A stretch of 64,000 nt of DNA from Candidatus Dormiibacterota bacterium (GCA_963718525.1 OY970355.1:1888001-1952000), one strand, 5' to 3'; positions 11,321-60,707 are shown, numbered from the stretch's first letter. Numbers and translations are program-made. The notes: generated by a model not told the origin, from the letters alone.

Positions 11321-12974
11321 ATGGCAGCCAAGCAGCTTCGCTTCGAGGCGCCCGCGCGCGCCGCGCTCGCACGCGGCGCGGCGATCGTCGCCGACGCCGT
11401 CGCGGTAACACTCGGACCACGCGGTCGCGCCGTGGTGCTGGACAAGAAGTTCGGCCCGCCTCTGATCAGCAATGACGGGGTGACGATCGCGCGTGAGCTC
11501 GAGCTCGAGGATCACTTCGAGAACATGGGCGCGCAGCTGCTCAAGGAAGTGGCGATCAAGACCAACGACATCGCGGGGGACGGCACCACAACGGCCACGG
11601 TGCTGGCCCGGTCGATGCTCGACGAGGGGTTGCGGAACCTCGCGGCGGGTGCTGCACCCAACGACCTGCGCCGCGGCATGATGGCCGCGTCCGACGCCGC
11701 CGTCGAGTTCGATCCGGGCGCGCTCGCACCCGGTCAAGGGCGGCGACGACATCCGTCGCGTGGCGACGATCAGCTCCGGAGACGACGTCATCGGCGCCAT
11801 GATCGCGGACGCCTTCGACAAGGTCGGCAAAGAGGGCGTGGTGTCGGTCGAGGACGGAACCGGGATCGAGACCGAGGTCGATGTCGTCGAGGGCATGCAG
11901 TTCGACCGGGGATACATTTCCGCGTACCTCGTCACCGACGCGCAGCGCATGGAGGCGGTCCTCACCGACGCTCGAGTTCTTGTCACAGATGCCAAGATCT
12001 CATCGGTCAGCGATCTCCTGCCCAGCCTCGAGCTGGTGATGCGTGCGGGCCGCCCGCTGCTCATCGTCGCCGAGGACGTCACGGCTGAAGCCCTGGCCAC
12101 GCTGGTCGTCAACCGCGCCCGGGGGACATTCACCGCGGTGGCGGTCAAGGCTCCCGCATTCGGGGAGCGCCGCGACGCCATCCTCCAGGACATCTCGGTG
12201 CTCACCGGAGCGACGGTCATCAGCGAGAAGACCGGCCTGCGCCTCGACGCCGTGCGTGACGACCAGCTCGGCTCCGCCGCGCGGGTCACCGTCACCAAGG
12301 ATGACACCACCATCGTCAGCGGCGGCGGGTCGAAGGCGGCGATCGAGGCACGCGCCGCCGAGATCCGCCAGCAGATGGAGGAGACGACCTCCGACTGGGA
12401 CCGCGAAAAGCTGCAGGAGCGGCTCGCGCGGCTGACGGGTGGCATCGCGGTGATCAAAGTCGGGGCGGCCACCGAGGTCGAGATGAAAGAGCGCAAGTCC
12501 CGCGTCGAGGATGCGCTCTCCGCAACGCGCGCCGCCATCGAGGAAGGCGTGGTCGTCGGAGGCGGCGTGGCATTGCTGCGCGCGATCCCGGCGGTCCAGG
12601 CGCTCAAGCTCGAGGGAACGGCACGTGTGGGCGCGGACATCGTTGCCCGGGCGCTTCGCGAGCCGCTCCGGATCATTGCCCAGAACGCCGGACTCGAGGG
12701 ACAGGTCGTCGTGAACGAGGTCCTGGAGGCCACGGGCGACCATGGCTTCGATGCAGCGACCGAGACCTACGGCAACCTCATCGAGCGTGGAGTCATCGAT
12801 CCCACCAAGGTCGTCGTCTCGGCGTTGGTCCATGCAACGTCGATCGCCACCATCGTGCTCAGCACCGACGCACTGATCGCGGATGCGCCGGAGCCAGAGC
12901 AGGCCCCCGCGGGCGGTGGCCACTCCCACGGCGGTGGTGGCATGGGCATGGACGACGACGACATGGACTTCTAG
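11321..12974 (+). CDS. groEL: Chaperonin GroEL, apparent +1 frameshift near 11708
   Basis: VTLGPRGR and [10 protein letters not shown] in frame +2; [15 protein letters not shown] and KLQERLA in frame +3. One extra T at GAGTTC 11705-11710. Confidence 0.95.
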
Positions 12975-13088
12975 CCTCGGGCAACCCAGCCTCGGCGCAT
13001 CCCCGGCGGCACGTCCGTGACCTCGACCGGTGTCGTACCGTTGCCATGGTCATGCACCGACCACCACTGACGCCGCCGACCCGCTGAC

Positions 13089-15761
13089 GTGTGCGGGATA
13101 GCGGGCTTCTGGGGGTCGCCCGACAGGGCGCTGCTCGAGGCGATGACCGAGTCGCTCCGGCACCGAGGTCCGGACGATGACGGGCATTTCGAGGATGCGG
13201 TCGCGTCGCTCGGGTTCCGCAGGCTCAGCATCATCGACCTCGCGCACGGCAACCAGCCGATGTCTATGGATGACGGCAAGCTGCAGATCGTCTACAACGG
13301 TGAGGTCTACAACTTTCGCGAGCTCCGGACCGAGTTGGAGGTTGCGGGACACGCCTTCAACACGACGTGCGACACCGAGGTGGTGCTCCACGCGTATGCG
13401 GAGTGGGGAACCGACTGCTTCCGCCGTTTCAACGGCATGTGGGGTCTCGCGATTCTCGACGAGCGTGCATCGGTGCCGAGGATGGTGCTCGCGCGCGACC
13501 ACTTCGGGATCAAGCCCCTCTTCTACGCGCGTCACCACGGCCGGGTCGTCTTCGCGTCGGAGATCAAGGCGATCCTCCAGGACGAGACCTTCCCTCGCGA
13601 GGTCGACGAGCAGCAGATGTACGAATACCTTCGTTTCGGTCTCTTCGACCACAACGACGGAACGTTCTTTCGCGGCATCCGCCAGGTCCCCGCAGCGGCA
13701 TTCGCGGTCATCGAAGGCGGCACGATCTCCGAGTCGGTGTACTGGACCCCGCGGCTGTCCGAGGACGGGGATGCGAGCCCGGAAGCGTTTCGGGCGATCT
13801 TCGAGCGTGCCGTGCAGCGGCGCCTGGTGGCCGATGTTCCCGTCGGCATCTGCCTGAGCGGCGGACTCAACTCGTCATCCATCTGCACGGTGATGGCCCA
13901 GCAACTCCGCGATCACGTTCGCGATACCGAGTCGCTCGGCGACCGCCTCAAGACGTTCTCCGCAGTGTTCCCCGGAGATCGCATCGACGAGAGCGCCTAC
14001 ATCGACAGCGTGCTCGAACTCACCGGCGCGGACAACAGCGCGGTGCAGCCGACCGACCAGGACTTCATCCGCGAGCTCGAAGCGTGGGTCTGGCACATGG
14101 AGGAGCCGATGGTCTCGTCCGCGCCGTTCGCGATGTGGATGGTGATGCGGCTCGCGCGACGCCAGGTCACGGTCACCCTCGACGGTCAGGCCGGGGACGA
14201 GCTGCTCGCCGGCTACGACCACTACCCGTACGTGCTGCTCCGCCAGCTGTTGCGCGACCGTCGCTACGCCGAGTTTGCTCGCGAAGCATGGCTGCTCCGC
14301 GACATCGTCGGGCCACTGGTGCGCAGGCGGCTGCGTGAGCGCGGCCAGCGCGTCGATGTGGCAGGGATGCTGTCGCCATCGTTCACGCGGGGGCGCAAGG
14401 CGCCGGCCGACGACCGGGTGGCCGACGATCTCAAGCGCCGCCTGCTTCAGGACTTCCGCACCTACAGCCTGCCGCCACTGCTCCGCTACGAGGATCGAGC
14501 CTCGATGGCGCATTCACTCGAAGCGCGTTTGCCCTACCTGGACCAGGAGCTCGTGGACTACATCCTCACCCTCCCGCGCAGGGCGATCATCCACAGCGGG
14601 TGGACGCGGGCGATCGTTCGCCAGGCGCTCCACGGGGTCCTGCCGGCGAAGGTCGAGGCGCGCCGCAAGAAGATCGGCTTCACCACACCCGAATTCCGCT
14701 GGTACCGCCGCCAGCGCGCGGTGCTGCAGAGCCTGATGCGCTCACCGTCGTTCCGTGCGCGTCCGTACTGGAAGGCCGCGGCGGTGGCCGAGAACTTCCG
14801 TCGCGCCTGCACCGGCGAGGTCGAGGAATCGATGTTCTTCTGGCGCGCCGTCAACGCCGAGGTGTGGTTGCGCGTCTACATCGACGGCAAGACGAAGGCA
14901 CTGGACAAGCACAGCTATGAGGGCGGGTTCGTCCGTCGCGGTGATCGCGCGGCCGCGCGCAGGCTGGCCGGCGGCGAGGCGCTGCTCGAAGGTGCGCGGC
15001 TCAACTGGGGCCGGCATCTTTTCCTCGAGGACAGGGGGCGCATCTGGGCCCGATTCCCGCTCCGCTCGAGCCTGATCAAGCCCGGCGACGATATCCTCGA
15101 AGCGATCGCCGCCAGCGTCGAGCGGCTGCGCGGCGACGGCGTCGCCATCGAGGACGGCGACGTGCTGCTGGTGAGTGAGAAGGCGCTGGCCATCAGTCAG
15201 GGCCGCTCCTACCCGATCGACGAGATCCCCGTCTCGCGAACGGCGCGCGTGCTCTCCCGGTATGTGAGCCACGAGCCCACCGGGATCGGCCTTTCGCATC
15301 CCACCACCATGCAACTGGCCATCGATGAAGCAGGAGCACCGCGGATTCTCATGGCCGCGATCGCCGCCGCCGCGACCAAGCCACTGGGGATGCGCGGCAT
15401 CTTCTACCGCGTCGCCGGACACGGGGTCAACGCGATCGACGGGCCTTCGTCGCTCAACTTGCCTCCCTACGACAAGTGGGCGACCAAGTCGCCGCTCGAT
15501 CCGTCGGGCGCTGCGCTCGAGATCGCCGCGGACCTGCGCCGCCGCACCGCGCGCCGTGTCGCCGTGGCGATCATCGACGCCAACGACATGGCCGCCGAGG
15601 TGTTCGCATCGGTCGGTGTCGACGCCGAGTCAGTTCTAGCCATGGTTGCCGACAACCCGCTGGGACAGTCGGATGAGCAGACGCCCTTCGGTCTGGTGCG
15701 CCGCGTCGCGCCGGCAGAGGTTGCAGCGCCTGCGCCGGAGCCCGTACCGGTCGGAGCGTGA
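13089..15761 (+). CDS. asnB: Glutamine-hydrolysing asparagine-synthase-family amidotransferase fused to a C-terminal CofE (F420-0:gamma-glutamyl ligase)-like domain
   Basis: MCGIAG N-terminal Cys, HRGPD, RRLSIID, YNGEVYN, LSGGLNSS, DGQAGDEL, EARLPYLD and RKKIGF. The last ~240 aa carry IKPGDD, GDVLLVSEK.LAISQGR, NAIDG, AIIDAND and DNPLGQSDEQTP. Confidence 0.85.
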   Translation: MCGIAGFWGSPDRALLEAMTESLRHRGPDDDGHFEDAVASLGFRRLSIIDLAHGNQPMSMDDGKLQIVYNGEVYNFRELRTELEVAGHAFNTTCDTEVVLHAYAEWGTDCFRRFNGMWGLAILDERASVPRMVLARDHFGIKPLFYARHHGRVVFASEIKAILQDETFPREVDEQQMYEYLRFGLFDHNDGTFFRGIRQVPAAAFAVIEGGTISESVYWTPRLSEDGDASPEAFRAIFERAVQRRLVADVPVGICLSGGLNSSSICTVMAQQLRDHVRDTESLGDRLKTFSAVFPGDRIDESAYIDSVLELTGADNSAVQPTDQDFIRELEAWVWHMEEPMVSSAPFAMWMVMRLARRQVTVTLDGQAGDELLAGYDHYPYVLLRQLLRDRRYAEFAREAWLLRDIVGPLVRRRLRERGQRVDVAGMLSPSFTRGRKAPADDRVADDLKRRLLQDFRTYSLPPLLRYEDRASMAHSLEARLPYLDQELVDYILTLPRRAIIHSGWTRAIVRQALHGVLPAKVEARRKKIGFTTPEFRWYRRQRAVLQSLMRSPSFRARPYWKAAAVAENFRRACTGEVEESMFFWRAVNAEVWLRVYIDGKTKALDKHSYEGGFVRRGDRAAARRLAGGEALLEGARLNWGRHLFLEDRGRIWARFPLRSSLIKPGDDILEAIAASVERLRGDGVAIEDGDVLLVSEKALAISQGRSYPIDEIPVSRTARVLSRYVSHEPTGIGLSHPTTMQLAIDEAGAPRILMAAIAAAATKPLGMRGIFYRVAGHGVNAIDGPSSLNLPPYDKWATKSPLDPSGAALEIAADLRRRTARRVAVAIIDANDMAAEVFASVGVDAESVLAMVADNPLGQSDEQTPFGLVRRVAPAEVAAPAPEPVPVGA

Positions 15762-16888
15762 GCCCGAACGGCGCGGGGGACCCGCTCCGCTGGGCGGAGA
15801 TCGACGTCGCCGCGCTGGCGGGAAATGCCGAGGTGATCGCGACGCTCGTGCGCCCGGCGCAGGTGATGGTCATGGTCAAGTCGAACGGCTACGGGCACGG
15901 TATCACCATCGCGGCACGCGCGGCGCTTGACGGCGGGGCATCGTGGCTCGGGGTCTACACCCCCGACGAGGCGCTCCTGCTCAGAGCGGCTGGGTTCGAC
16001 GCACCCGTGCTGGTCGTGGGCTGGAGCCCGCCCGCGACACTGGATGCGCTGATCGGCGCCGGCGTCGATGTCAGCGTTCTGGACGCCGACGGGCTGCGCG
16101 CGGTGGCCCACGCCGCTGCCGGTCACCGACCTCGCATCCATCTCAAGATCGACACGGGCCTGCATCGCCTCGGCACGCAGCCCGAGAGCGTGGACTCGCT
16201 GACCTCGGCGGTGCGTGACGCGGGCCATCGCGTGGAGGTGGCCGGGATCTTCACCCACTTCGCCGACGCGGGCGAGGACGCGGCGTTCACAGTCACCCAG
16301 CACGGGCGTTTCCTCGAGGCCGTGGCAGCACTTCGGGGGGTGGCGCCGGAGGCGCTGCTGCACACGTCGGGCAGCGCCGCGATCCTGGCGCATCCCGCGA
16401 TGCACCACGACCTGGTGCGTGTCGGTATCGCCTTCTACGGCTACCCGCCGGTCCCTGTTCCGGAATCGCTGAAGCTCGCGATGCACGTGTTCGGCCGCGT
16501 CGCCCAGGTGCGCACCGTCGAGCCCGGCGAGAGCGTCGGCTACGGGCGCACCTGGCGTGCCGCCTCCACGCGCCGGATCGCAACGGTGACGCTCGGCTAC
16601 GGGCAGGGCCTGCCACGGGCGCTCTCCAACCGCGGGCATATCGGCATCCGCGGCAGCCTGTGCCCGATCGTCGGGATCGTGAGCATGGATCAGGTCGGCG
16701 TTGATGTGTCCGACGTCGACGGCGCTGTGGCCGGCGACGCCGCCATGTTCATCGGCGAACGCGACGGAATTCGCATCGGCGCCGACCGAGTGGCCGACCT
16801 CGCGGGCACCCTGCCGCACGAGATTCTCTGCGGCATCTCGGAGGGCATCCCTCGCCATCCTGGGGTCACGCCGGCTGCGCTACCGTGA
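15758..16888 (+). CDS. alr: Alanine racemase
   Basis: VKSNGYGHG (PLP lysine), HLKIDTGLHRLG, FTHFADA, VRVGIAFYG, VGYG and VSMDQ. Confidence 0.95.
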   Translation: MSPNGAGDPLRWAEIDVAALAGNAEVIATLVRPAQVMVMVKSNGYGHGITIAARAALDGGASWLGVYTPDEALLLRAAGFDAPVLVVGWSPPATLDALIGAGVDVSVLDADGLRAVAHAAAGHRPRIHLKIDTGLHRLGTQPESVDSLTSAVRDAGHRVEVAGIFTHFADAGEDAAFTVTQHGRFLEAVAALRGVAPEALLHTSGSAAILAHPAMHHDLVRVGIAFYGYPPVPVPESLKLAMHVFGRVAQVRTVEPGESVGYGRTWRAASTRRIATVTLGYGQGLPRALSNRGHIGIRGSLCPIVGIVSMDQVGVDVSDVDGAVAGDAAMFIGERDGIRIGADRVADLAGTLPHEILCGISEGIPRHPGVTPAALP

Positions 16889-16892
16889 GGGC

Positions 16893-17764
16893 ATGAGCCG
16901 CCCGGTACGCATCGCTGTCGCCCAGTACGAGCCGCGTGTCGGCCAGCTCGAGCACAACCGGTCGCAGGCGGTGCTCTGGGCGACAGCGGCTGCGGACCGG
17001 GGAGCGAACCTGATCGTGCTTCCCGAGCTGGCGTCCAGTGGCTACGTGTTCGGCGATGACGCAGAGGCGCAGCGCGCGGCCGAGGACCCCGACGACGGGC
17101 CGACGGTCCGGGCACTGCGCGAGGTGAGTGCGACGCACGGGTGCTACATCGTTGCAGGCATCAGCGAGCGCGCCGGCGACTGCAGGCACAACAGCGCGGT
17201 GCTCATCGGCGCGTCGGGGCGCATGGCCACGTATCGCAAGCTGCACCTCTATTACGACGAGCAGACGTGGTTCGAACCCGGTGACGACCTGCCGATCGTC
17301 GACCTTCCCTTCGGGCGGGTCGGCATGATCATCTGCTTCGACCTCTGGTTCCCCGAACCCGCCCGGGCCCTCGCGCTCGCCGGTGCGGAGATCATCGCAG
17401 TGCCGACCAACTGGGTCGCGTCGTTCAAGCGCACCGTCTGGGACGAGCGAGGCTACTGCCAGGGTGATTACGTCGCGATGGCGACCGCTGCGCAAAACGG
17501 CGTGGTGATGGCCTGCGCGGACCGCGTGGGGGTTGAACGCGACGTCAACTTCATCGGCGCCTCGATCATCGTCGGGGCTGATGGCTGGCCGGTGTCCGGC
17601 CCCGCGAGCAAGGATGCGGAAGAGTTGCTCCTCGCCGACGTCGACCTCGATTCCGTCGAACAGGCGAGACGGCGCACGCCGCGCAACCATCTGCACGGCG
17701 ACCGGCGACCCGATGCCTATCACGCATCGATGGGGAGCACCGCGCCGGCGACCGAGGCCCGCGC

Positions 17765-17768
<4 letters not shown>
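16893..17768 (+). CDS. Nitrilase/carbon-nitrogen hydrolase family protein
   Basis: Glu-Lys-Cys triad in LPEL, YRKLHL and ICFD.WFPE. Confidence 0.9.
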
Positions 17769-22028
<4,260 letters not shown>

Positions 22029-22045: not shown

Positions 22046-24073
22046 GTGACAACCATGGCCACCGCACGGCGCGCGGAGCGCCTCCTGGACGACAAAGCGC
22101 AGCTGCGCGCGCGATTGCGGGCGTCTCCGGACGGTCCGGGCGTCTATGTGATGCGCGGGCCGGACGCGCGGGTCATCTACGTTGGCAAGGCCTCGAACGT
22201 CCGCAACCGTCTGCGCTCGTGGTTCAGCGGCGTCGATGCGCTGCAGCCCCGCACCCATCAGCTGATCGGCACCGTGTTCGATTTCGAGGTGATCGCGTGC
22301 CAGAGCGAGCACGAGGCCCTCGTCCTCGAGAACACGCTCATCAAGCAGCACCGGCCGCGGTTCAACGTGCGCCTGAAGGATGACAAGAGTTATCTCTATC
22401 TCAAGATTCCGCGTCCCGGGGTGCACGACGCGGTCGCACCCGGCACGGCGCGCGAGGAGGTCCGCAAGCCCCGGGGCAAGAGCGCCGAGGGAGCGACGGA
22501 GTTCCCGAGGCCGTACTACACCCGCAAGGTGATCCGCGACGGCGCGCGATATTTCGGGCCGTACACGAGCGCGCAGTCGCTGCGCACCACCGTCCGATCA
22601 CTGCGCACCATCTTTCCGTTCCGAACCTGCAGCGACGAGGTCTTTCGTCGCGGCAGGGTGTGTCTCGACTACCACATCAAACGATGTGCGGGACCCTGTG
22701 AAGGCAGGATCGGCGGTCCGGAGTATGCGGAGCTGCTCGATCAGGTCCAGGAATTCATGGACGGCAAATCCGACACCCTCCACGACGAATTGCGCGATCA
22801 GATGGACGCGGCCGCCGGCAATCGCGACTACGAGCTCGCGGCGCGATTCCGCGACCGTCTGCGTGCGATCGAGCGCATCAGCGAGCGCCAGACCGTGCTT
22901 CGCGGGGCGCGATCCGACGAGGACTGCATCGCCGTCGCCGTCGAGGCCGGGCGTGCGATGGCGGCGGTGCTGAGCATCCGCCAGGGACGCGTCATGGCGA
23001 TGGAGACTCACGAGCTCGAGGGGGTCGCGGGGCTCGATGCCGCCGCCTGCCTCGCTGGTTTCCTTCCTCAGTATTACGCGAACGCGACCTCGATTCCCCG
23101 TCGCGTGCTGGCGTCGGAGGACATCGAGGAACGCCAGGTGCTCGAGGAATTCCTGTCGGCGCAACGCGGTGCTCCCGTGGAGGTGCACGTCCCCAAACGC
23201 GGCGACTCGAGGCGGCTCATCGAGCAGGCCGCAGAGACCGCGCTGGTCGCGCTCCGGCAGCAGCGCATCGTCGACGACTATGACGCCGCGAAAACCGAGG
23301 CGCTGCTGGACGATCTCGCGACCCGGCTGCAGCTCCCGGCTCCCCCCCGGCGGATCGAGTGCTACGACATCAGCAACACCATGGGCACGAACTCCGTGGG
23401 GTCGATGGTGGTGTTCGAGGAGGGCCGTCCGGCGCCTGCGAGCTACCGGCATTTCGGCATCAAGACCGTCGAGGGATCCAACGATTTCGCCTCCATCGAG
23501 GAGACCCTGCGCCGCCGCTTCCGGAGGCTCGGACCTCGCGACGGTGGCCCGGATTCCGACGTTCCGGTGCTGGATCCGGCGGGTGCGAACGGTACGAACG
23601 AGCGGCCGCGGCGTGCACCGCGTGGTGGTGACGATGCGGACATGAGCTTCTCGGTGCTGCCTGACCTGATCCTCATCGACGGCGGCAAGGGCCAGTTGAG
23701 CGCCGCGGTGAAAGCACTTCGGGAGGCAGGTCTCAACCAAGTCCCCGTGTTCGGGCTGGCGAAGCGAAACGAAGAGCTCTACAAACCGGGACGATCGCGG
23801 CCGATCATCATCGAGCGAGACAGCCCAACGCTGTTCCTCGTGCAGCGGGTGCGCGACGAGGCGCATCGTTTTGCGATCACCCGCCATCGAGCACGTCGCG
23901 GACGCGCTGCGCTGCGCTCCAAGCTGGACGTCGTGCCGGGTCTCGGCCCCGTTCGCCGGCGGGCGTTGCTCAGGCAGTTCGGCAGCATCGACGCCATCCG
24001 TGATGCACCGGTGGAGCAGCTCAGCACAGTGGTGCCGAGGCCGGTGGCGCTGCGCGTCAAGGAACTCCTGTGA
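22046..24073 (+). CDS. uvrC: Excinuclease ABC subunit C
   Basis: GIY-YIG (PGVY, IYVGKA), LKDDKSY, IECYDISN, LIDGGKGQ, RDEAHRFA and HhH. Start may be GTG 22046, ATG 22055 or CTG 22025. Confidence 0.96.
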   Translation: MTTMATARRAERLLDDKAQLRARLRASPDGPGVYVMRGPDARVIYVGKASNVRNRLRSWFSGVDALQPRTHQLIGTVFDFEVIACQSEHEALVLENTLIKQHRPRFNVRLKDDKSYLYLKIPRPGVHDAVAPGTAREEVRKPRGKSAEGATEFPRPYYTRKVIRDGARYFGPYTSAQSLRTTVRSLRTIFPFRTCSDEVFRRGRVCLDYHIKRCAGPCEGRIGGPEYAELLDQVQEFMDGKSDTLHDELRDQMDAAAGNRDYELAARFRDRLRAIERISERQTVLRGARSDEDCIAVAVEAGRAMAAVLSIRQGRVMAMETHELEGVAGLDAAACLAGFLPQYYANATSIPRRVLASEDIEERQVLEEFLSAQRGAPVEVHVPKRGDSRRLIEQAAETALVALRQQRIVDDYDAAKTEALLDDLATRLQLPAPPRRIECYDISNTMGTNSVGSMVVFEEGRPAPASYRHFGIKTVEGSNDFASIEETLRRRFRRLGPRDGGPDSDVPVLDPAGANGTNERPRRAPRGGDDADMSFSVLPDLILIDGGKGQLSAAVKALREAGLNQVPVFGLAKRNEELYKPGRSRPIIIERDSPTLFLVQRVRDEAHRFAITRHRARRGRAALRSKLDVVPGLGPVRRRALLRQFGSIDAIRDAPVEQLSTVVPRPVALRVKELL

Positions 24074-24480
24074 GCGAAGCGGAATCCGCGGGAGACGTCG
24101 CTGTCGCGATGATGTCGTTCGGCTTCAAGTTCGGTCTGCCTCCTGACGCCGGCTGGGTCCTGGACGCGCGCATGGTGCGCAACCCCTTCTGGGTCCCCGC
24201 GTTGCGCTCGTACACCGGGCTCGATGCCGCAGTTCGTGACTACGTCCTCGAGGATGCCGTGGCGCACGAGCTCATCGAGCGCGCCCATGCGCTTGTGCTG
24301 TGGACGGCTCAGCGGTCTGCGGAACGCAGCCGGGACCACCTGAGCTTCGCCGTCGGTTGCACCGGAGGCCGGCATCGATCGGTGGCCATCGTCGAGGCGC
24401 TCGCGGGCAGGTTGCGGGATGACGGGCTGGGCGTTGCCGTGACCCACCGCGATGTCGACGTCCCGGATCCTCGCCTGTGA
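24070..24480 (+). CDS. rapZ: Stand-alone RapZ/YvcJ C-terminal domain protein
   Basis: SFGFKFG, DAR..RNPFW, GCTGGRHRSV and HRD. Only 136 aa, with no P-loop domain. Confidence 0.8.
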   Translation: MSEAESAGDVAVAMMSFGFKFGLPPDAGWVLDARMVRNPFWVPALRSYTGLDAAVRDYVLEDAVAHELIERAHALVLWTAQRSAERSRDHLSFAVGCTGGRHRSVAIVEALAGRLRDDGLGVAVTHRDVDVPDPRL

Positions 24481-28433: not shown

Positions 28434-29972
28434 GTGAGTCGCGGGGTGCGGCCGTTCGTGCTCGTCATCCTCGACGGATGGGGCAGCAACGCGGATCCGT
28501 ATGGCAACGCGATCGCGGCCGCGCGTACGCCCGAGCTGGACGCGCTCGAGCAACGCTGGCCGCACACCGAGGTCGAGGCCAGCGGTGAGGCGGTGGGATT
28601 GCCGCCTGGCCAGCAGGGCAACTCCGAGGTGGGCCACCTCACCATCGGCACCGGCCGTCTGATCCACCAGCCGCTGTCGCGCATCAGCCGTGCGATCGAG
28701 GACGGCAGCTTCTACGAAAACCCCGCGCTCTGCGAGGCGGTCGATCGCGCACGCGAGCGCGGCGGCGCGGTGCACTGCCTCGGATTGATCTCGCCCGGTG
28801 GGGTGCACAGCCACCAGAATCACGCGGTTGCACTCGCCGCACTCGCCCGCCGGCGCGGCCTGGACTCGGTGTGGTTCCACGTGTTTCTCGACGGCCGTGA
28901 CGAGCCGCCGACGAGCGCCGCGGGGTTCGTGCGCACGTTCGTCGGCGAGCTCGATGGCGTCGGCGCCGGGGCGATCGCGTCGGTATCCGGCAGGTATTTC
29001 GCGATGGATCGCGACCGCCGCTGGGACCGGATACAGCGCGCCTACGAGGTCATCGCCGGCGCGGGTGGCGGCACCGCTGCCGACCCCGTCGCCTACATCG
29101 AGTCGCAGTACGCGTCGGGGATCACCGACGAGTTCGTTCCGCCAGTGTCGATCCTCCACGACGGCAGGCGAGTGCGCATCGAGGACGGCAACTCGATCAT
29201 CTTTTTCAACTTCCGTCCGGACCGCGCGCGCCAGCTGTCGCACGCACTCGTCGACCGAGACTTCGACGGGTTCCCGCGGTCGAAGGTGTTGCAGGATGTC
29301 GACCTCGTCACGTTCACCGAGTACGAGCGCCACCTCGACGCGCGTGTGGCATTTCCGCGTGAGGACGCCGGCCACACCCTCGCGGAGGAGGTGAGTGCGG
29401 CGGGGTTGCGCCAGTTCCACGTCGCGGAGACCGAGAAGTACGCGCATGTCACGTACTTCATCAACGGAGGACGCGAGGACGCGTTCGATGGCGAGGAGCG
29501 GTTGCTCGTCCCTTCCCCTCGGGTCGCGACCTACGACGCGGTGCCCGAGATGAGCGCCGCCGGCGTCACGGATGCCGTGATCGCTCGACTTCAGAGCAGC
29601 GACGACGCGCTGCTCATCGCCAACTACGCCAACGCCGATATGGTCGGCCATACCGGCGATTTCGATGCCACCGTACGCGCCGTCGAGTTCGTCGACACCT
29701 GCCTCGGGCGCCTCGCCCGCGCGGTCGACGCTGCGCGGGGCGGTTTGCTCATCACCGCAGACCACGGCAACGCCGAGTACAAGATCGATCGCAGTGACGG
29801 GTCGGTGCTCACCGCCCACACCACCAGCCCGGTGCCGGTGATCCTCTGCGGCGCCGGCGACGGCGGGCTCCGTGGCGGGGGAGGGTTGCGTGACGTGGCG
29901 CCCACGGTGCTGGAGGCGATGGGGCTCCCCGTCCCGGCGGTCATGACGGGCCGGTCGCTGCGCGAGGCCTGA
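28434..29972 (+). CDS. gpmI: 2,3-bisphosphoglycerate-independent phosphoglycerate mutase
   Basis: ILDGWG, GNSEVGH, GGVHSH, AMDRD, AETEKYAHVT, DMVGHTG and TADHGN. Confidence 0.97.
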   Translation: MSRGVRPFVLVILDGWGSNADPYGNAIAAARTPELDALEQRWPHTEVEASGEAVGLPPGQQGNSEVGHLTIGTGRLIHQPLSRISRAIEDGSFYENPALCEAVDRARERGGAVHCLGLISPGGVHSHQNHAVALAALARRRGLDSVWFHVFLDGRDEPPTSAAGFVRTFVGELDGVGAGAIASVSGRYFAMDRDRRWDRIQRAYEVIAGAGGGTAADPVAYIESQYASGITDEFVPPVSILHDGRRVRIEDGNSIIFFNFRPDRARQLSHALVDRDFDGFPRSKVLQDVDLVTFTEYERHLDARVAFPREDAGHTLAEEVSAAGLRQFHVAETEKYAHVTYFINGGREDAFDGEERLLVPSPRVATYDAVPEMSAAGVTDAVIARLQSSDDALLIANYANADMVGHTGDFDATVRAVEFVDTCLGRLARAVDAARGGLLITADHGNAEYKIDRSDGSVLTAHTTSPVPVILCGAGDGGLRGGGGLRDVAPTVLEAMGLPVPAVMTGRSLREA

Positions 29973-29982
29973 ATCCGCCCCT

Positions 29983-31254
29983 CTACGGCGAAGGCGACGG
30001 GGACTGGTAGGGGACAGGCTCGATCTGGTCGACGGGATGCGGACCGCTTCGCCATCCATCGCCGGGCCCGAGGGTCAGGTGACAGTCGGCGCCGGTGACC
30101 GGGTTGCAGGCCACCGGTTGGGTGTGGATCGCAACTCCGTCACTCCAGCTCACCGTGATGCTGATGGTGAAGGTCTCCGTCGCCGTGACGGTCGCGCCGG
30201 CCGAGACCACCGCATAGTCGTGGCTCACCGCGCACGGGTCGTTCCAGCGCTGCGTCGACGGGTCATACAGCGGCAGGAGTGCCGGTACACGCTCGGCCGG
30301 GCCTGGCGCGATCGTGGTCGAGCCGTCGCCCCAACTCCACGCGACCGGTCCCGGCGTCACCGTGACGTCGTAGAGCAGGAACAGCGTGTACCCGCCGACG
30401 ACCGTGGTCGTGAGTGCGTGCGATGCGACGGGCGCTGCCGGAACCGTTGAGTCGGTCCACGCGCAGGTCGGGATGTGCACGAAGGTGCGCGACGTCGTCG
30501 AGCCACCGGGCAGCATGTCGATGCTTCCAACCGTCCACGCGCTGGTCAGCGCGGCGACGAGGTTCGCGCCGGTCGGAAATGGCGGGCGGTCGAGCACGCC
30601 GGTCGGAGGCACCGGCGGCGGTGCGTTGCCGGCGAGGTATGGAGCGCTGAACACGAACATCGCCCCCTGGCAGCTTCCGCCAAAGGGTGCCACCGGCTGC
30701 GCGTCCTGCCAGGTGCCGCGGGTGTACAGGAAGGCCGTCACGGCGATCAGGTGGCCTGCGACATTTGCGGCGGTCGCGAGCGCGCCCGGCGCAGTGTCGG
30801 TCGCGACGCCGCCCGGCGGGATCGCGCCCGCGACCGCGTACGCGAACCGCGCTTCGGACCCGTCGTAGCCTCCCGCCGCATTCCGCGTGAAGACCGGATG
30901 GATCGAGATCACCGCGACGATGCCGCCGCCGGGCGACGGCGATCCAGGACCGACATGGAACACGTTTGACTGCGGGCAGGCCATCCCCTGCGGATTCGGC
31001 CCGGGCGGCGGGGTCTCGAGTGGGTTGTGCGGGTCAGTTCCCGGTGGGGTGATGGTCGACGGCACGATTGGGAGATACGTCCCTCCGGCACCGGCGACCA
31101 GCTTGCCATGCGTCACCGCCGCAATGCCGGCGCTCGACGGCCCGGGAGCGGCGCCGCCCGAGCCGCCTCCGCCACCGGATGCGATCGCGGTTGAGGTCGG
31201 GATCACGGCGAGCACAACGCCGGTGACGAGCATTCGGCGGGCGCGACCCGTCAT
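29983..31254 (-). CDS. Secreted Pro/Gly/Thr-rich hypothetical protein with a possible PKD/Ig-like C-terminal region
   Basis: Signal peptide ending AIA, Gly-rich linker, several Cys, and a WSWGDG...VSHDY beta-rich motif. Confidence 0.65.
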   Translation of the reverse strand: MTGRARRMLVTGVVLAVIPTSTAIASGGGGGSGGAAPGPSSAGIAAVTHGKLVAGAGGTYLPIVPSTITPPGTDPHNPLETPPPGPNPQGMACPQSNVFHVGPGSPSPGGGIVAVISIHPVFTRNAAGGYDGSEARFAYAVAGAIPPGGVATDTAPGALATAANVAGHLIAVTAFLYTRGTWQDAQPVAPFGGSCQGAMFVFSAPYLAGNAPPPVPPTGVLDRPPFPTGANLVAALTSAWTVGSIDMLPGGSTTSRTFVHIPTCAWTDSTVPAAPVASHALTTTVVGGYTLFLLYDVTVTPGPVAWSWGDGSTTIAPGPAERVPALLPLYDPSTQRWNDPCAVSHDYAVVSAGATVTATETFTISITVSWSDGVAIHTQPVACNPVTGADCHLTLGPGDGWRSGPHPVDQIEPVPYQSPSPSP

Positions 31255-31487
31255 CGTCCGCACCCGGTCACGGCGAGCAGCCATGCACCGATCAACGTCA
31301 TCGCGAGCCCCCTCACCACCTCACCTCGAAACTCTCGCTGTGCGCAACGGACGGCGAACGCCCGATGGCCGCTTCGCTCGGCCCTCCCCGTGGGGCGGCT
31401 AGCATGGCAGTTCGCGGTGTCCGCCGGGGCTGAGGACGGTGACGGACCGGTCACCTGCGCGCAAGTTTCGCTGGGTACGCTGGATGA

Positions 31488-31793
31488 ATGGCAGGTCCGG
31501 GCGATCTCAACTCCGCGCGCCTGCGTCGTGACCTGAGCCTCGTGCTGCGACGCAAGCTCACGCTCTATTCGGGGATCGGCGCCGTGGGCCTCACCGTGGT
31601 CTTCTCGGTGGTCGCGGCCACAACGGCGCCGGGCAAAGCGTCGCCGGTCGTGCCCTCAGCGTCGCCGTCCAATCCAGGCGCGAGCCAGCAGCCCGAGGCG
31701 CCGGCCGCCAATCAACCCAGCCTCGTGATCCCGGTGCAGCCTCCTCAGAGCGGTTTCGGCGGCTCGCCGGCCACGATTTCCGGCGGCTCCTGA
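31488..31793 (+). CDS. Small membrane-anchored protein with a Pro/Ser-rich tail
   Basis: One TM segment followed by a low-complexity tail. TACGCT lies 6 nt upstream of the ATG. Confidence 0.6.
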   Translation: MAGPGDLNSARLRRDLSLVLRRKLTLYSGIGAVGLTVVFSVVAATTAPGKASPVVPSASPSNPGASQQPEAPAANQPSLVIPVQPPQSGFGGSPATISGGS

Positions 31794-31821
31794 TGCGCTC
31801 GCGGCTCGCAAGCCGCGCCGA

Positions 31822-32547
31822 TCATCGACTGCTCGCAGCCTCGGTGAGCAATTCCCCGAGCCGCGAGCCGTCGAGGTTGCCGCCGCTGACGATCGCCACC
31901 GTGCGCGGCGTGGATCGCCCGTCGAGCATGGCCGCATAGCCAAGCGCACCGGCACCCTCCGCGACGACCTTCAGCTCGGTCGCCATGCGCGCGACCGTCC
32001 TCCGCAGCGTTGTCTCGGGCACGACGGCCCAATCGCCCACCACTCGCTCGACGTCCGGAAGGTCCGCGAGGATCTCCGGAACGATCGACGCGTGCCCGGT
32101 GATGACCGCGGTGTCGGCGAACGGGTGGATGAACACCTCGGGGTCGCGTTCCCAGGCGCGCGTGGCCATCCACTCGAAAAGCCGGTCCCGTGGCAAGAGC
32201 ACGGTCTCGGCGCCGAGTGCGCGCACCCCGTCGACCTTGAGCGCCGGTGCGGTGTCGAACATCACAACTCTGCACGGAACGTGCAGCGCGCGAGCCACGT
32301 ACGCGCACGCCAGCGCCGCATTGCCTGCGCTGACCGTGAGCAACCCACGGGCCACCCGCTCGCGGTCCACGACGTGAGCCGCGGCGAAGAAGCCTCGCAC
32401 TTTGAAGCTGCCGGTGGGCTGCAGCAACTCCAACTTGAGGAAGCCTCCGGCCGGCGCGGCGATCGACGGCGTGCGGCGGATGTGGGGCGCGAGGAGGCGG
32501 GCGATCTCGTGGACGCGCGCCGCGTCGACCCCCTCGATGGGAGTCAC
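31822..32547 (-). pseudogene. Threonine/serine dehydratase-like PLP enzyme with an in-frame internal deletion
   Basis: FLKLELLQPTGSFKVRG, SAGNA, HPFAD, AEGAGA and SGGN are present, but the central GGGG PLP-phosphate loop segment is missing (241 aa against ~320 typical). Confidence 0.6.
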
Positions 32548-40472: not shown

Positions 40473-41779
40473 CCCGCGAGCACCGCGCGTCGACGCTCCG
40501 CGGCCTGCAGTGAGGCGAGCATCACCTCCATGATGTGCATCACCTTGACGTTCGGCGCGTAGCGCGCGGCCCCTGCGCGCAGCTGGAGCAGGCACGAGAT
40601 GTTCTCGGTCACCACGATCTCCGCTCCACTGGCGCGGATGTTGTCGAATTTGCGACGGAGGATCGCCTCACTGCGCTCGGGTTGCCGCGCGAAGTACGTC
40701 CCCGCGCCGCCACAGCACATCGCACGCTCGTTCAGCGGGACGACGTCGAGATGGGGGATCTGCTCGAGCAGCCGCCGCATCGCACCTCGCTCGGGTCCGT
40801 CGATCGGCAGCGCGCACGGCTCATCGACGGTGACGCGCCAGCGGAGCGGCCCGAGGGTGCCGCGGACGCCGTTGCGGTCGAGGAAATCACTGGCGAGGGC
40901 TGTGTGATGGGCAATCTCCACCGCGCGATGACCGACCTGGCGATCATCGCCGGCGATGCTCCCATACTCGCGGTAGTGCTCGGTGCATGACGCGGTGTCG
41001 CCGATGTATGCGTCGACGTCGAGGTGGCTCATCGCCGCGCTGTTCTTGACCGCCATGTCCACCATCGCGTCGCGGTCACCGAGGGTGCGCGCCGGCAAAC
41101 CGCTGCAGCCGAGCTGCGGCACCTGGACGCTGTAGCCGGAGCCGAGCAACACCCGGATGGTTGCGTCGGTTGATTCCGGCGCGGTGAGATTCTCGAGGCA
41201 GCAGACCAGCACCGCCACGTTGCCGCGCAGCGGCAGCGTGGGCGCCGGCAGGTCACCGAGCATCTGGTGGACCGTGCGATCCGGCGGGGGACCGCTCTGC
41301 TCGGCGAGCGCGCCGAGGGTACCCAGCCACGACAGCATCCCGGTGCGGCGCGCCAGCCCGTAGAGCCCGGTGCGCCGGGTGAAACGCGCGAACGTGTGGA
41401 GCGCACGCAGCGCACCGGGCCGTGGCAGCACGTTGCGCAGCGCGAAGGACTGGGCCCACGGATACCCCTCCTGCGCATGCAGCTCCTGGCGCGCTCTGCT
41501 GACGATGTGCCCGGTCGGAACGCGCGGCGCGCATGCGGCGACGCAGTTGTCGCAGGTCAGGCAGGTCGACAGCGGGCCGTCGGCGATGTCACGCAGCTCG
41601 AGGCGGCCCTCCATGGCATCGCGAATCAGTGCGATCCGTCCGCGCGCCGTCTCCCATTCCACGGGATTCACGACGTATGCCGGGCACGTGGCCTGACACA
41701 GCGAGCACTTGTTGCATTCGCTCGCCGCCTCGTAGACGTCGGCAAGGAAGCGCGGGGTCGGGACGGCGGCGCCGGCCAT
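40469..41779 (-). CDS. GlcF-like Fe-S oxidoreductase subunit (two 4Fe-4S motifs plus CCG domains)
   Basis: CNKCSLCQATCP, CLTCDNCVAAC, CCGGAG and NISC. Confidence 0.85.
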   Translation of the reverse strand: MAGAAVPTPRFLADVYEAASECNKCSLCQATCPAYVVNPVEWETARGRIALIRDAMEGRLELRDIADGPLSTCLTCDNCVAACAPRVPTGHIVSRARQELHAQEGYPWAQSFALRNVLPRPGALRALHTFARFTRRTGLYGLARRTGMLSWLGTLGALAEQSGPPPDRTVHQMLGDLPAPTLPLRGNVAVLVCCLENLTAPESTDATIRVLLGSGYSVQVPQLGCSGLPARTLGDRDAMVDMAVKNSAAMSHLDVDAYIGDTASCTEHYREYGSIAGDDRQVGHRAVEIAHHTALASDFLDRNGVRGTLGPLRWRVTVDEPCALPIDGPERGAMRRLLEQIPHLDVVPLNERAMCCGGAGTYFARQPERSEAILRRKFDNIRASGAEIVVTENISCLLQLRAGAARYAPNVKVMHIMEVMLASLQAAERRRAVLAG

Positions 41780-41856
41780 TGGGCCGGGATTGTAGACGAG
41801 ATCGCGAACCGCTCAACCGGCGATGGCGCGGGCCGCCGATCCGTAGAGTTGCGTCG

Positions 41857-43440
41857 ATGATCGCGGACTACCACGTGGAAGCTTTCACGGACGAGGAGCG
41901 GCAGCTGCTCGCCCCGCATGTGACCAATCTCGATCGCCCGGTGTTCGCGCTCACCAATCTTCCGCAGGTCACCGCCGCCGCGCTGTTCGCCCGGTACAGC
42001 CGCAGCTCGAAAAGCCTTCGCCGTCTCCTCGTCGACGAATTCCTTGCCGGGGGCTCGGCGGGCGCGGCAGCATCGGCCGATGCGGGGCGGGAGCGGGCGT
42101 CGGATCTCTTTGGACGTGTGCTCGCCGAATACGGGGACGACTCCGTTGCCCAGCTCGCCGGCGTGCACCTCGCGTGCGAACAGGTCTCCCAACCGCTTGC
42201 CAAGGCGATCGAATGGGGACGGCTCGCCGCCTATTTGGAGCAGTCGACGCGCTACATCCCGTACACGGATCGCCGGGACGGTCACTATCGCTACCTGCGC
42301 GACCGCGAGCTGCTCTCGTCGCCGCTCGGCGCGACCTACTCGAAGGCGATGGACCTGCTCTTCGACACGTACTCGGAGCTGCGCGAGCCACTCGCCCGGC
42401 ACCTCGACGAGACCCTGCCGCCCGAACCGGACGAGAAGGCGCGCCGCCGCGCGATCCGGGCGCTCGCGCTCGACCTGATGCGTGGACTGCTCCCGGCGGG
42501 GACGGTGAGCAACGTTGGGATGTTCGCGTCTCCCCAGGCGTACGAGCAACTCGTGCTCCGCCTTCGTGCGCACCCGCTGCCCGAGGCGCGCGCATATGCC
42601 GAGCTGATCAACGCGGAACTGCAGAAGCTCATCCCTGAGTTCCTGACGCGTCTCGATCGCCCCGACCGAGGTGCTGTGTGGGTCGCATACCTGCGCGAAA
42701 CGGCTGCCGCGCTCGCTCACCAGGCAGACGCGCTCTCCCCGGAGGGCGAATGGGGGCCCACCGGCGTGACGCTGGTGGAGTGGGACGGCGACGGCGAGGA
42801 CCGGATCCTCGCCTCAGCGCTCTTCCCGTACTCACACGCGTCGCAGGAACGGCTGCTGGCTGCGGTACGTCCGCTCTCGGATGCTCGGCGCCAGGCGCTC
42901 TTCGCGGCCGCCGTCGGGCATCGCGGCAATCGCCGCCATCGCCCCGGCCGTGGGTTCGAGCACTGTGACTACACCTTCGAGGTCGTCTCCGACTACGGCG
43001 CTTTCCGCGACCTGCAGCGCCACCGCATGCTCACGATCCAGTGGCAGGAGCTGACGCCGTCGCTGGGGTACGAGGTCCCCGATGCGGTCGTCGATGCCGG
43101 GCTCGCCGAACGCTGGCATGTCGCCGTCCGGGAGGCAGAGGCCGCGTATCGCGAGATCGCCGACACGTTCCCGCAGCAGGCCGGCTACCTGGTCACGCTC
43201 GGCCACCGCGTGCGATACGTGATCAAGCTCAACGCACGCGAGGCGATGCACATGATCGAGCTGCGCACGTCGCCGCAGGGCCATCCGAGCTACCGGCAGA
43301 TCTGCAAGGAGATGCTCCGTCTCATCGATGAGGTCGCCGGTCACCATCTGATAGCGAGGGCGGTTCGTTTTGTGGGATTGGACGACGTCCACCTGCCGCG
43401 ATACGCTGCCGAGGCCGCGAGCACGTCAACGGCTGACTGA
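41857..43440 (+). CDS. thyX: FAD-dependent thymidylate synthase, tandem two-domain form
   Basis: ARYSRS, YGDDSVAQL, EQSTRY, R.LLP, FRDLQRHR, NAREAMH.IELR and GH.SYR. Confidence 0.85.
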   Translation: MIADYHVEAFTDEERQLLAPHVTNLDRPVFALTNLPQVTAAALFARYSRSSKSLRRLLVDEFLAGGSAGAAASADAGRERASDLFGRVLAEYGDDSVAQLAGVHLACEQVSQPLAKAIEWGRLAAYLEQSTRYIPYTDRRDGHYRYLRDRELLSSPLGATYSKAMDLLFDTYSELREPLARHLDETLPPEPDEKARRRAIRALALDLMRGLLPAGTVSNVGMFASPQAYEQLVLRLRAHPLPEARAYAELINAELQKLIPEFLTRLDRPDRGAVWVAYLRETAAALAHQADALSPEGEWGPTGVTLVEWDGDGEDRILASALFPYSHASQERLLAAVRPLSDARRQALFAAAVGHRGNRRHRPGRGFEHCDYTFEVVSDYGAFRDLQRHRMLTIQWQELTPSLGYEVPDAVVDAGLAERWHVAVREAEAAYREIADTFPQQAGYLVTLGHRVRYVIKLNAREAMHMIELRTSPQGHPSYRQICKEMLRLIDEVAGHHLIARAVRFVGLDDVHLPRYAAEAASTSTAD

Positions 43441-43496
43441 GCACCCGGGCCGAGGAACGGCCGTCCACGGCCGGTACAGCATGTCAATCTGACGTC

Positions 43497-44387
43497 GTGA
43501 AGCGCCGCGTGACATCGATCGCCGGATGGGCAACACACACATATCCTGGACGGCTCATCGCCGCATTCGGCTCGAGCCAGGCGGGCAACTATGCGTCGGG
43601 TCTGGCGTTCAACGCGTTCCTCAGCATGTTCCCGCTCATCCTCGGGTTGCTCGCGATCCTCGGCTTCGCGACGCAGTCACCTGACGCCAAGATGAAGGTC
43701 CTCGACGCGATTCTCGGGTTCTTCCCGCAAACAGCCCATGCGGAGCTGGTGGCCACGTTCACCGGTGTCCAGCAGCATTCGGGGCTGCTCGGCATCGTCA
43801 GCCTGGTGGGCCTCCTATGGGGCGGCAGCAGCCTCTTCACTGGGATGGAGTTCGCGCTGAGCGTGATCATCGGTGGCCGCCAGCGCAGCTTTCTACGGCA
43901 GCGAGGCATGGCGCTGGCCATGACCATCCTGTTCGTCGTCGCCCTGGTCGCCACCGTCGGCATCAATTCGATCGTCGCGATTCCTGGAGTCATCTGGATC
44001 TTTGAGCCGGTGGTCGGCCTGCTGGTGTGGTGCGGGTTCATGCTCGCGGTGTACCGGCTGGTCCCCAACCGCACCCACCGGGTGTCGGAAACCTGGCCCG
44101 GCGTGGTCATCGCCGGGACCGCGATGGAGATCCTCACGCTGCTGTGGCCCCTGTACGGACGCCTTTCCCACAACTTTTCGACGTATGGCTCGACCTTCGC
44201 CCTGTTCTTCGTGCTCGCCAGCTGGCTGTACTTCCTGGCTCAGTTCATCCTGCTCGGCGCCGTCGCCAACCGCATGCACGCCGGCGAGCCGGATGCTCGC
44301 GGCCTTCTCGGCGAACGGCCGGCCAGTCGACAGAAGGTCGCAGAAGCGTCTCGGACCGGTGGCGAGGTTTCCCGGACGGGGGCGTGA
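43497..44387 (+). CDS. YihY/BrkB-family membrane protein
   Basis: A..LAF..FLSMFP, YRLVPN, TYG and WLY...ILLGA. Confidence 0.88.
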   Translation: MKRRVTSIAGWATHTYPGRLIAAFGSSQAGNYASGLAFNAFLSMFPLILGLLAILGFATQSPDAKMKVLDAILGFFPQTAHAELVATFTGVQQHSGLLGIVSLVGLLWGGSSLFTGMEFALSVIIGGRQRSFLRQRGMALAMTILFVVALVATVGINSIVAIPGVIWIFEPVVGLLVWCGFMLAVYRLVPNRTHRVSETWPGVVIAGTAMEILTLLWPLYGRLSHNFSTYGSTFALFFVLASWLYFLAQFILLGAVANRMHAGEPDARGLLGERPASRQKVAEASRTGGEVSRTGA

Positions 44388-60529: not shown

Positions 60530-60573
60530 CGGCCTCCGTGAGCTGGACGCGAACTGGATCGAAACGGTCCCCG

Positions 60574-60602: not shown

Positions 60603-60707
60603 CCCCATTGCGACGCTTTTGTCGATTGCACGCGCCCAACATCGCAACCACCGGACACTTCAGACGTTCCAGTCGCGTCGCGACAGCGCGATACACTGAT
60701 GATTCGC

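Follow-up and report, generated by a model that had tools for sequence, protein, structure and literature searches.

A single open reading frame (ORF) in a 64,000-nucleotide stretch of DNA from Candidatus Dormiibacterota bacterium (GCA_963718525.1 OY970355.1:1888001-1952000; G+C ~68%), hereafter the window, encodes a protein in which a region of the AsnB type, with glutaminase and asparagine-synthase domains, is fused to a C-terminal tail related to the F420 ligase CofE. The new result of our analysis is that the family of this tail and MurT are almost mutually exclusive among the genomes sampled. MurT, together with GatD, is reported to amidate the alpha-carboxyl of D-iso-Glu on lipid II (PMC3266927, PMC6113224). 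From sequence comparisons, we propose that the fusion protein may act on the peptidoglycan stem peptide in place of MurT/GatD, most likely at that alpha-carboxyl, and we give this proposal an even chance; the wider statement, that the fusion tailors a cell-wall precursor and does not serve F420, we regard as rather likely.

Domain architecture of the fusion protein

The fusion starts with GTG-TGC-GGG-ATA, encoding M-C-G-I, the hallmark of N-terminal nucleophile (Ntn) amidotransferases, and matches the Pfam families GATase_7 (residues 44-164, 154.5 bits), GATase_6 (residues 28-158) and Asn_synthase PF00733 (residues 234-595, 247.3 bits), while the NCBIfam model TIGR01536 covers its N-terminal 530 residues with 447.4 bits (cut-off 267.1). 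The linker that follows has no Pfam match. The tail matches F420_ligase PF01996 over residues 658-837 (E 1.5e-15, 57.8 bits with a gathering cut-off of 25, profile positions 2-155 of 218) and displays the motifs SEK.LAISQGR, IDGP, IDAND and DNPLGQS.EQTP. Pfam, NCBIfam and the translation thus agree with the original prediction, made from the sequence of the window, of one 890-residue ORF with an Ntn-amidotransferase/asparagine-synthase region and a CofE-family tail.

A tail-family profile was built from 20 sequences, namely the tail of the window and 19 stand-alone relatives, and matches the fusion in its own genome (G000:C1:1903003-1903713) with 289.5 bits. This alignment also served for modelling, and the AlphaFold model of residues 640-890 has a mean pLDDT (predicted local distance difference test) of 88.9. 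In a Foldseek search of the PDB at E<=0.001, the model resembles CofE only, matching the Archaeoglobus fulgidus chains 2phn, 2g9i and 7uld at a TM (template modelling) score of ~0.56 and 19-21% identity, so that structure prediction and Pfam both place the tail in the CofE fold. In line with this, profile-profile alignment (hhalign) of the tail alignment with 11 canonical Chloroflexota CofE sequences gives a homology probability of 98.3%, and the tail keeps the SEK Lys, the IDAND Asp and probably also, shifted by one column, the IDGP Asp. A stretch of ~40 residues, including the domain-swapped hairpin of CofE, is unaligned. Additionally, the tail alignment displays invariant acidic and polar motifs of its own.

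Near-complete exclusion between the tail family and MurT

MurT_C (PF08353) is found in 1 of the 47 tail-bearing genomes of the class sample (G228) versus 132 of the 154 tail-less ones. Specifically, within family f1, own genome counted, the match occurs in 1/42 tail-bearing versus 8/9 tail-less genomes, and by genus in 1/11 tail-bearing versus 5/6 tail-less genera; in family f3 it occurs in 0/5 versus 66/68 genomes, and five of the seven MurT-less genomes of that family are the five tail-bearing ones. The wider samples give the same picture, with MurT_C in none of 11 tail-bearing and 92 of 140 tail-less genomes of the phylum sample, which takes in the stand-alone tail forms of family f12, and in none of 23 tail-bearing versus 75 of 228 tail-less genomes of the order around Microbacterium. 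With the overlap of G000 and G119 removed, the three samples together contain MurT_C in 1 of 79 tail-bearing genomes. The tallies include genomes flagged as unpublished (G164, G180, G198, G214, G224, G225, G235, G236, G257, G259, G270, G283, G287, G312, G038 and G145); the class sample minus its 14 unpublished genomes gives 1/45 tail-bearing versus 124/142 tail-less. Fisher tests on such counts overstate the significance, because kin are not independent.

In genus g48 of the phylum sample, one genome has the tail without MurT (G052) and another has MurT without the tail (G136), and the switch between the two recurs in at least six families. The own genome of the window yields no PF08353 candidate, and genomes that carry a stand-alone tail gene with no AsnB within 10 kb (loci L058, L059 and L061) are likewise without MurT, while the control, Corynebacterium glutamicum, is positive for MurT_C. 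Distributions that complement each other so sharply usually mark a non-orthologous displacement, or a modification that competes for the same atom.

The AsnB part and the tail form a functional couple

A search with the tail among proteins of 489-1558 amino acids returned 423 matches at E<=0.001. Among the 120 matches listed, nearly all are 850-935 residues long, carry both PF00733 and PF01996 and come from many independent assemblies; the fused ones are labelled Dormibacteria, Chloroflexota or Acidimicrobiia, and the closest fused proteins among them, labelled Candidatus Dormibacteraeota, share 88-90% identity with the query. Hundreds of homologues of 870-920 residues in Dormibacteria and Actinomycetota, from independent assemblies, rule out a read-through artefact, and the fusion is genuine and kept in relatives.

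Within the class sample, the tail family occurs in 47 of 201 genomes, and AsnB is fused to it or directly adjoins it in all 47. In some genera, split forms, in which an AsnB gene of ~615 codons is followed by a separate tail gene, sit at the same locus as the fused gene; genomes with split forms are G332, G273, G258, G249, G003 and G052. This obligatory linkage shows that AsnB and the tail are a functional couple. At one such locus, in genus g5, the fused gene of G119 (L046) is 68%/58% identical to that of the window, and the split genes of G332 (L055) and G273 (L064) are only ~41%/36% identical to it, which suggests that the module was replaced there by a distant version.

The family reaches far beyond the class. 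A library-wide phmmer search with the tail collected 707 representative clusters at E<=0.001 (445 at E<=1e-10), made up of fused proteins and of stand-alone proteins of ~230-250 residues at ~40% identity, and a scan of the genome collection found at least 554 tail-family relatives. Cultured Actinomycetes have the fused architecture, with ~40% identity in both halves, under records that are labelled simply asparagine synthase and belong to Brachybacterium, Helcobacillus, Flexivirga, Knoellia, Oryzobacter, Terrabacter, Terracoccus, Humibacillus and Intrasporangium (including I. calvum); many Actinomycetales members carry no precomputed PF01996 label. Stand-alone tail genes occur in Saccharibacteria, Parcubacteria and other members of the candidate phyla radiation (CPR), and in Bacteroidales, Clostridia, Armatimonadota and Microbacterium arborescens DSM 20754.

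Further architectures were seen in passing. The tail is fused to a C-terminal GNAT domain in protein P0137 and in three CPR/Saccharibacteria loci (L092 597-1739, L095 2135-3286 and L097 7980-9197). Other predicted partners are adenylate kinase, M20 peptidase, an HD_4 domain, AhpC/TSA, PlsY and CDP-alcohol phosphatidyltransferase (P0161, P0171, P0147, P0193, P0204 and P0234), and some of these six fusions may be gene-calling artefacts. In two Actinomycetales loci, L167 (8189-10621, minus strand) and L168 (8476-11061, minus strand), a CofE-like domain ends a protein of 810-861 residues that matches no Pfam family at E<=1e-6 and whose N-terminal ~570 residues have no tblastn match to the AsnB part; both genes adjoin asd, a TetR regulator and sugar-nucleotide or GT4 genes.

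Neighbouring genes in other lineages point to the envelope

Neighbours were clustered for 80 loci out of the at least 554 tail-family relatives. MurJ lies directly downstream of the tail gene in six of them, all from CPR/Saccharibacteria and three with the tail-GNAT fusion (L092, L095 and L097, assigned by blastp clustering, with Pfam run on the L095 gene as cluster representative). In Dormibacteria (family f3 and one further record), a class-A penicillin-binding protein (PBP) lies downstream in L052, L054 and L101, and a Polysacc_synt flippase upstream in L053 and L101. Additionally, a YkuD L,D-transpeptidase is located upstream in L085, a polysaccharide deacetylase nearby in L081 and Lgt downstream in three Bacteroidales loci, while Actinomycetales loci have dapA-rnj-ftsK (L159) or dapA (L163), both by Pfam, next to the gene, or asd nearby (L167, L168). 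Loci of the Microbacterium type carry ATP-grasp and alr-like racemase genes beside the stand-alone gene (annotated in L143, L172 and L173), with tblastn alr matches in L171-L173. Taken together, the neighbours elsewhere point to the envelope. The cell-wall role that had been predicted fits the recurrent MurJ, class-A PBP, flippase, L,D-transpeptidase, dapA, asd and alr genes and, more strongly, the exclusion of MurT.

The Microbacterium-type loci have a layout of their own. The stand-alone gene sits between a principal-type sigma-70 gene (Pfam in L143 and L172) and ATPgrasp_ST (Pfam in L143, L172 and L173), after which come one or two alr-like racemase ORFs (L171-L173) and a gyrB/parE-like gene; from its genes, the arrangement looks like a small amino-acid-ligation cluster.

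A putative substitute for MurT/GatD in stem-peptide tailoring

We propose that the fusion would be a bifunctional cytoplasmic enzyme of peptidoglycan-precursor tailoring that substitutes for MurT/GatD. The CofE-like domain would, as CofE does, activate a substrate carboxylate with a nucleotide triphosphate and then join it to an amine. This amine would be ammonia, released by the fused glutaminase, or else a small amino acid such as Gly or D-Ala. The synthetase domain of the AsnB part would adenylate and amidate another carboxylate. It would be the one on the added residue, which would yield a Gly-amide or D-Ala-amide cap, or the one on diaminopimelate, in the way of LtsA/AsnB. Overall, free carboxylates of the stem peptide would be neutralised, as they are elsewhere by MurT/GatD (and LtsA). 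The chemistry of MurT is of the same kind as the acyl-phosphate route of CofE, and that route would suit the proposed step. We favour the D-iso-Glu alpha-carboxyl as the target because of the anticorrelation with MurT, which does not support the amidated acidic-amino-acid bridge of the original prediction and points to this carboxyl instead.

Three versions of this mechanism can be drawn. In the first, the tail would activate D-iso-Glu, ammonia from the AsnB glutaminase would convert it to iso-Gln, and the synthetase domain would amidate diaminopimelate like LtsA. In the second, the tail would ligate Gly or D-Ala to the D-iso-Glu alpha-carboxyl and AsnB would amidate the new terminus. In the third, AsnB alone would amidate and the tail would only bind the substrate. 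The second version fits the linkage to alr described below. It also fits I. calvum, because that species carries the fusion (P0402, 891 residues) and, in its peptidoglycan, the D-Glu of position 2 is reported to have its alpha-carboxyl substituted by a glycine (PMC3035309). Going further, and tentatively, the CofE-fold family might be an unrecognised peptidoglycan-building class that acylates an amine with the D-iso-Glu alpha-carboxyl, which would reveal the enzymes behind the classical chemotypes with a substituted alpha-carboxyl of D-Glu and explain why these lineages dispense with MurT/GatD. The stand-alone tail of CPR/Saccharibacteria (by MurJ), Bacteroidales and Microbacterium (by ATP-grasp and racemase genes) would then attach Gly, D-Ala or a diamine; the tail with AsnB would yield glycine-amide or D-alanine-amide caps or iso-glutamine, and the tail with GNAT an N-acetylated amine. 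Glycine-amide and D-alanine-amide chemotypes are said to have been described by Schleifer and Kandler in 1972 and by Vollmer in 2008; in the literature searched, no chemotaxonomic source was found for "glycine amide" or "D-alanine amide" in peptidoglycan.

Several observations weigh against this proposal. MurT was traced by one Pfam model, PF08353, as sole marker, and many of the genomes are metagenome-assembled genomes that are 82-93% complete. One genome, G228, has both the tail family and MurT_C, and the exclusion is weak in the Actinomycetales sample, where neither gene occurs in 153 of 251 genomes. The clustering of 80 loci yielded no universal neighbour, with neighbourhoods differing between lineages, and four of the ten own-family loci have GNAT and GGDEF-EAL genes on the sides of the fusion in place of cell-wall genes. 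By hhalign, three invariant motifs of canonical CofE, S-K, G-R and D-E, are missing from the tail (nucleotide- and metal-site motifs compared: VSKAEGR, ANAGID.SN, D(S/T)xGR and ADE), which bears on its putative ligase activity. Finally, the murein of Brachybacterium faecium is reported to contain only meso-diaminopimelate (mDAP), Ala and Glu (PMC3035206), and Gly addition is therefore not the general reaction. As for G228, its MurT_C match (E 2.6e-21, profile positions 2-108) resembles the second, weaker MurT-like copies seen elsewhere and may be a paralogue.

Amidation of diaminopimelate or of a soluble metabolite as alternatives

A narrower reading, which we consider unlikely, is that the enzyme amidates only the epsilon-carboxyl of diaminopimelate in the manner of LtsA/AsnB, the CofE-like domain being a non-catalytic module that binds substrate or nucleotide. 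AsnB paralogues are reported to amidate mDAP (PMC5485061, PMC7920481, PMC8554201), and the wall-amidating enzymes are described as lacking the Asp-binding D and R and having an extra loop in the substrate region (PMC8554201). HMMER alignments of the fusion to human asparagine synthetase ASNS (6gq3) and E. coli AsnB (1ct9) show that the Asp of the D..R pair is replaced by Pro while the Arg is kept (LLRYEDR), with SLP.LLRYEDR as the consensus of 19 fused proteins. We take this pair to be D384/R387 of E. coli AsnB. Compared with E. coli AsnB, in a comparison that contained no LtsA, the fusion has lost the D, keeps the R and has ~60 extra residues between query positions 380 and 468. The replaced D, the loss of the CofE nucleotide-site motifs and the presence of dapA and asd among the neighbours all favour amidation of diaminopimelate alone. 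On the other hand, such amidation leaves the exclusion of MurT unexplained, and mDAP amidation and MurT coexist in Corynebacterium. Nor does it suit the tail genes that stand alone, with no AsnB within 10 kb, in genomes without MurT, or the invariant acidic and polar motifs of the tail, which are as expected of a catalyst.

The association with GNAT raises the possibility that the product has no relation to the wall and is a soluble amide of small size (osmolyte or peptide-like metabolite), made by a ligase, an amidotransferase and an N-acetyltransferase as for N-acetylglutaminylglutamine amide (NAGGN). A GNAT gene lies directly upstream of the fusion in L048, L050 and L065, the tail is itself fused to GNAT in P0137, L092, L095 and L097, and the NAGGN amidotransferase model TIGR03104 matches the fusion with 327.6 bits. 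This score is, however, far under the cut-off of 570, the tail-GNAT fusions lie directly upstream of MurJ, and a soluble product does not account for the exclusion of MurT either, which together make this reading quite improbable.

The AsnB part is probably not for asparagine supply

Public records annotate the fusion as an asparagine synthetase, its TIGR01536 score is above the cut-off, and it is the only genuine AsnB of its genome, all of which would suit a housekeeping enzyme with an accessory C-terminal domain. However, no asparaginyl-tRNA synthetase of the own genome reaches its cut-off while gatB does, and we therefore infer that Asn-tRNA is formed by transamidation. About half of the class moreover does without any AsnB (found at E<=1e-40 in 104 of 201 genomes and in none of the other 97), the aligned Asp-binding D is replaced, and the obligatory link to the tail would go unexplained. 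As judged from these comparisons, the fusion is probably not for asparagine supply, and the housekeeping reading is very unlikely. The closest solved AsnB-like chain is the TsnB9-type hydroxyamidotransferase 7YLZ (201.9 bits over residues 1-595).

The CofE fold outside F420 biosynthesis

The tail is not the F420 ligase of the organism. On the CofE equivalog model TIGR01916 it scores 27.5 bits against a cut-off of 180.65, and the own genome has a separate canonical cofE (TIGR01916 277.5 bits, PF01996 238.8 bits) directly upstream of cofD (276 bits), ~1.45 Mb from the window. In the window itself, no other F420 gene was seen among the 56 ORFs scanned with Pfam, a scan that left out 29972-31822, 41779-43497, 52523-53362 and 60529-64000, and the original prediction holds on this point. 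A phyletic profile against cofD also separates the family from F420. cofD is nearly universal in the class whatever the tail status (183/201 at 1e-50), with five tail-bearing genomes lacking a match at that threshold (G222, G180, G328, G210 and G288). Two isolates examined, G336 (a Microbacterium arborescens record) and G337 (a Bacteroidetes oral taxon 274 record), carry the tail family with 308 and 324 bits and have no cofD match at all.

CofE is reported to work by nucleotide-dependent carboxylate activation, giving an acyl-phosphate intermediate that an amine then attacks, and its domain-swapped hairpin to make critical contacts with F420 (PMC10861534). A non-F420 role of the CofE fold, as predicted, is supported here because canonical cofE and cofD lie elsewhere in the genome, some carriers of the family have no cofD, and the region of the hairpin that contacts F420 is unaligned in the tail. 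A role related to F420, for instance in modification of the oligoglutamate tail, for which the CofE fold, the Pfam family membership and the presence of cofD in 8/8 tail-bearing Chloroflexota genomes examined outside the class (of 9 in the phylum sample) versus cofE in 34/61 of a phylum sample would speak, is hardly credible given this evidence, the five cofD-less class genomes and the occurrence of the family in CPR lineages.

Genomic context of the fusion in the window

The window is housekeeping DNA. Its genes run nnrD, thiL, tsaE, tsaB, a two-component system, an ABC transporter, a rimI-like GNAT, tsaD, ideR, FTR1, groES, groEL and the fusion, and then alr, nit, pcrA, ligA, uvrC, rapZ, whiA, gap, pgk and tpi (features of the fusion, alr and nit in Table 1). 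The GTG of alr at 15758 overlaps the TGA of the fusion at 15759-15761 (GTGA), and four nucleotides (gggc) separate the end of alr at 16888 from the ATG of nit at 16893, both as first noted. alr scores 278 bits on TIGR00492 (cut-off 168). A promoter and terminator scan of 12700-18100 gave nothing above shuffles.

Table 1. Window coordinates of the fusion, its domains and the two genes that follow it
Feature	Position	Strand	Evidence or remarks
Fusion ORF	13089-15761	+	2,673 nt, 890 amino acids
Ntn (class II) glutaminase domain, N-terminal, Cys2 nucleophile	13089..13688	+	GATase_7, GATase_6, M-C-G-I start
Asn_synthase (PP-loop adenylating) domain, CLSGGLNSS motif	13788..14873	+	PF00733, TIGR01536
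Linker, AsnB part to CofE-like domain	14874..15002	+	Between the two aligned regions
Divergent CofE-fold domain	15003..15713	+	PF01996, tail-family profile, CofE-only fold match, hhalign
Pro/Ala-rich C-terminal end and stop codon, overlaps alr start	15714..15761	+	Sequence, pLDDT <50 for last residues
alr, alanine racemase, sole alr of genome, translationally coupled (GTGA)	15758..16888	+	TIGR00492, start overlap
nit, nitrilase-superfamily C-N hydrolase	16893..17768	+	PF00795 176.5 bits

The order groES-groEL-[fusion]-...-pcrA-ligA is kept in ten own-family loci. On the 3' side, alr and nit follow the fusion in five of them (L046, L051, L055, L063 and L064), nit alone in L049, and a GGDEF-EAL gene in L047, L048, L050 and L065. 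The coupling to alr and nit that had been predicted stands in part for alr and falls for nit. In the tail-less genome G004, nit lies between groES and pcrA without the fusion; it is a resident of the groEL-pcrA interval and not a specific partner of the fusion. For alr, the linkage may in part be inherited synteny, because tail-less relatives keep alr in the same housekeeping neighbourhood (alr...tsaD-groES-groEL), and five tail-less genomes from the family place alr 3-8 kb upstream of tsaD; Actinobacteria have an alr-tsaEBD-groESL cluster. A real link to D-Ala supply is nevertheless possible, since L081 and L083, two loci from Actinomycetota, likewise have alr immediately after the fusion. 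In a tree of 14 alr sequences, which left out L081 for its partial alr match, the deep forks have support of 57/17, and co-transfer with the fusion is not resolved.

Some features of the surrounding DNA were noted along the way. groEL is split over two frames at 11321-12974, with 11321-12088 matching positions 1-103 and 11760-12974 positions 138-489 of the Cpn60 profile, a frameshift that is either an assembly error or the mark of a pseudogene. G004, a tail-less relative of 1.5 Mb, has nit and pcrA immediately after groES in the corresponding locus (L200), without a groEL match in between. The ORF starts of uvrD/pcrA and uvrC look displaced. Between the long uvrC frame and whiA, and immediately behind the former, RapZ is represented as an ORF by its C-terminal domain alone (24070-24480, 136 residues), and there is no yvcK-like gene between rapZ and whiA. 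Two CHAP-domain (peptidoglycan amidase/peptidase) proteins are encoded at 746-1840 and 59402-60529, both on the minus strand.

Significance and comparison with known systems

The literature searched contained no paper on an AsnB-CofE-like fusion or on a non-F420 CofE-like family. Tailoring of stem-peptide carboxylates by an amidotransferase is of a known kind; the CofE-like partner fold is unprecedented. Many Gram-positive bacteria depend for cross-linking on amidation or substitution of the D-iso-Glu alpha-carboxyl; MurT/GatD is regarded as a drug target. If the proposal is true, the fusion would represent a non-orthologous displacement in a core pathway and the first function of the CofE fold outside F420 biosynthesis, and hundreds of database entries named asparagine synthase would have to be re-annotated. 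The tail family may also reveal wall tailoring in CPR/Saccharibacteria. Because the family occurs in easily grown Actinomycetes (Brachybacterium, Intrasporangium, Terrabacter and Microbacterium), the idea is directly testable.

With MurT/GatD, the fusion shares a proposed target and outcome, a complementary phyletic distribution and the combination of a carboxylate-activating module with a glutaminase. Unlike the fusion, however, MurT is a relative of the Mur ligases and GatD a class-I glutaminase; the two systems are not homologous, and their likeness is one of distribution and context only. The wall amidotransferases of the AsnB family (C. glutamicum LtsA, the AsnB proteins of Bacillus subtilis and Listeria monocytogenes, and AsnH of Lactobacillus and Lactococcus) resemble the fusion in combining an Ntn glutaminase with a PP-loop synthetase, and the fusion, like them, is probably not for asparagine supply, with one of the two Asp-binding residues lost; they are without a CofE-like domain, whereas the fusion has one and keeps the R of the D/R pair. 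The TsnB9-type hydroxyamidotransferase, an enzyme of secondary metabolism, likewise lacks the C-terminal CofE-like domain. Finally, CofE and the FbiB N-terminal domain (PF01996; PDB 2PHN, 2G9I and 7ULD) have the same fold as the tail (98.3% by profile-profile comparison) and share with it the N-terminal GD..V.S.K....GR segment, the LLP.DP segment and the Asp of I.D.N, yet the tail is only 19-21% identical to them, is without the S-K, G-R and D-E motifs and ~40 residues around the hairpin, has its own DNPLGQS.EQTP motif, occurs without F420 genes, and is fused to AsnB, GNAT and other partners.

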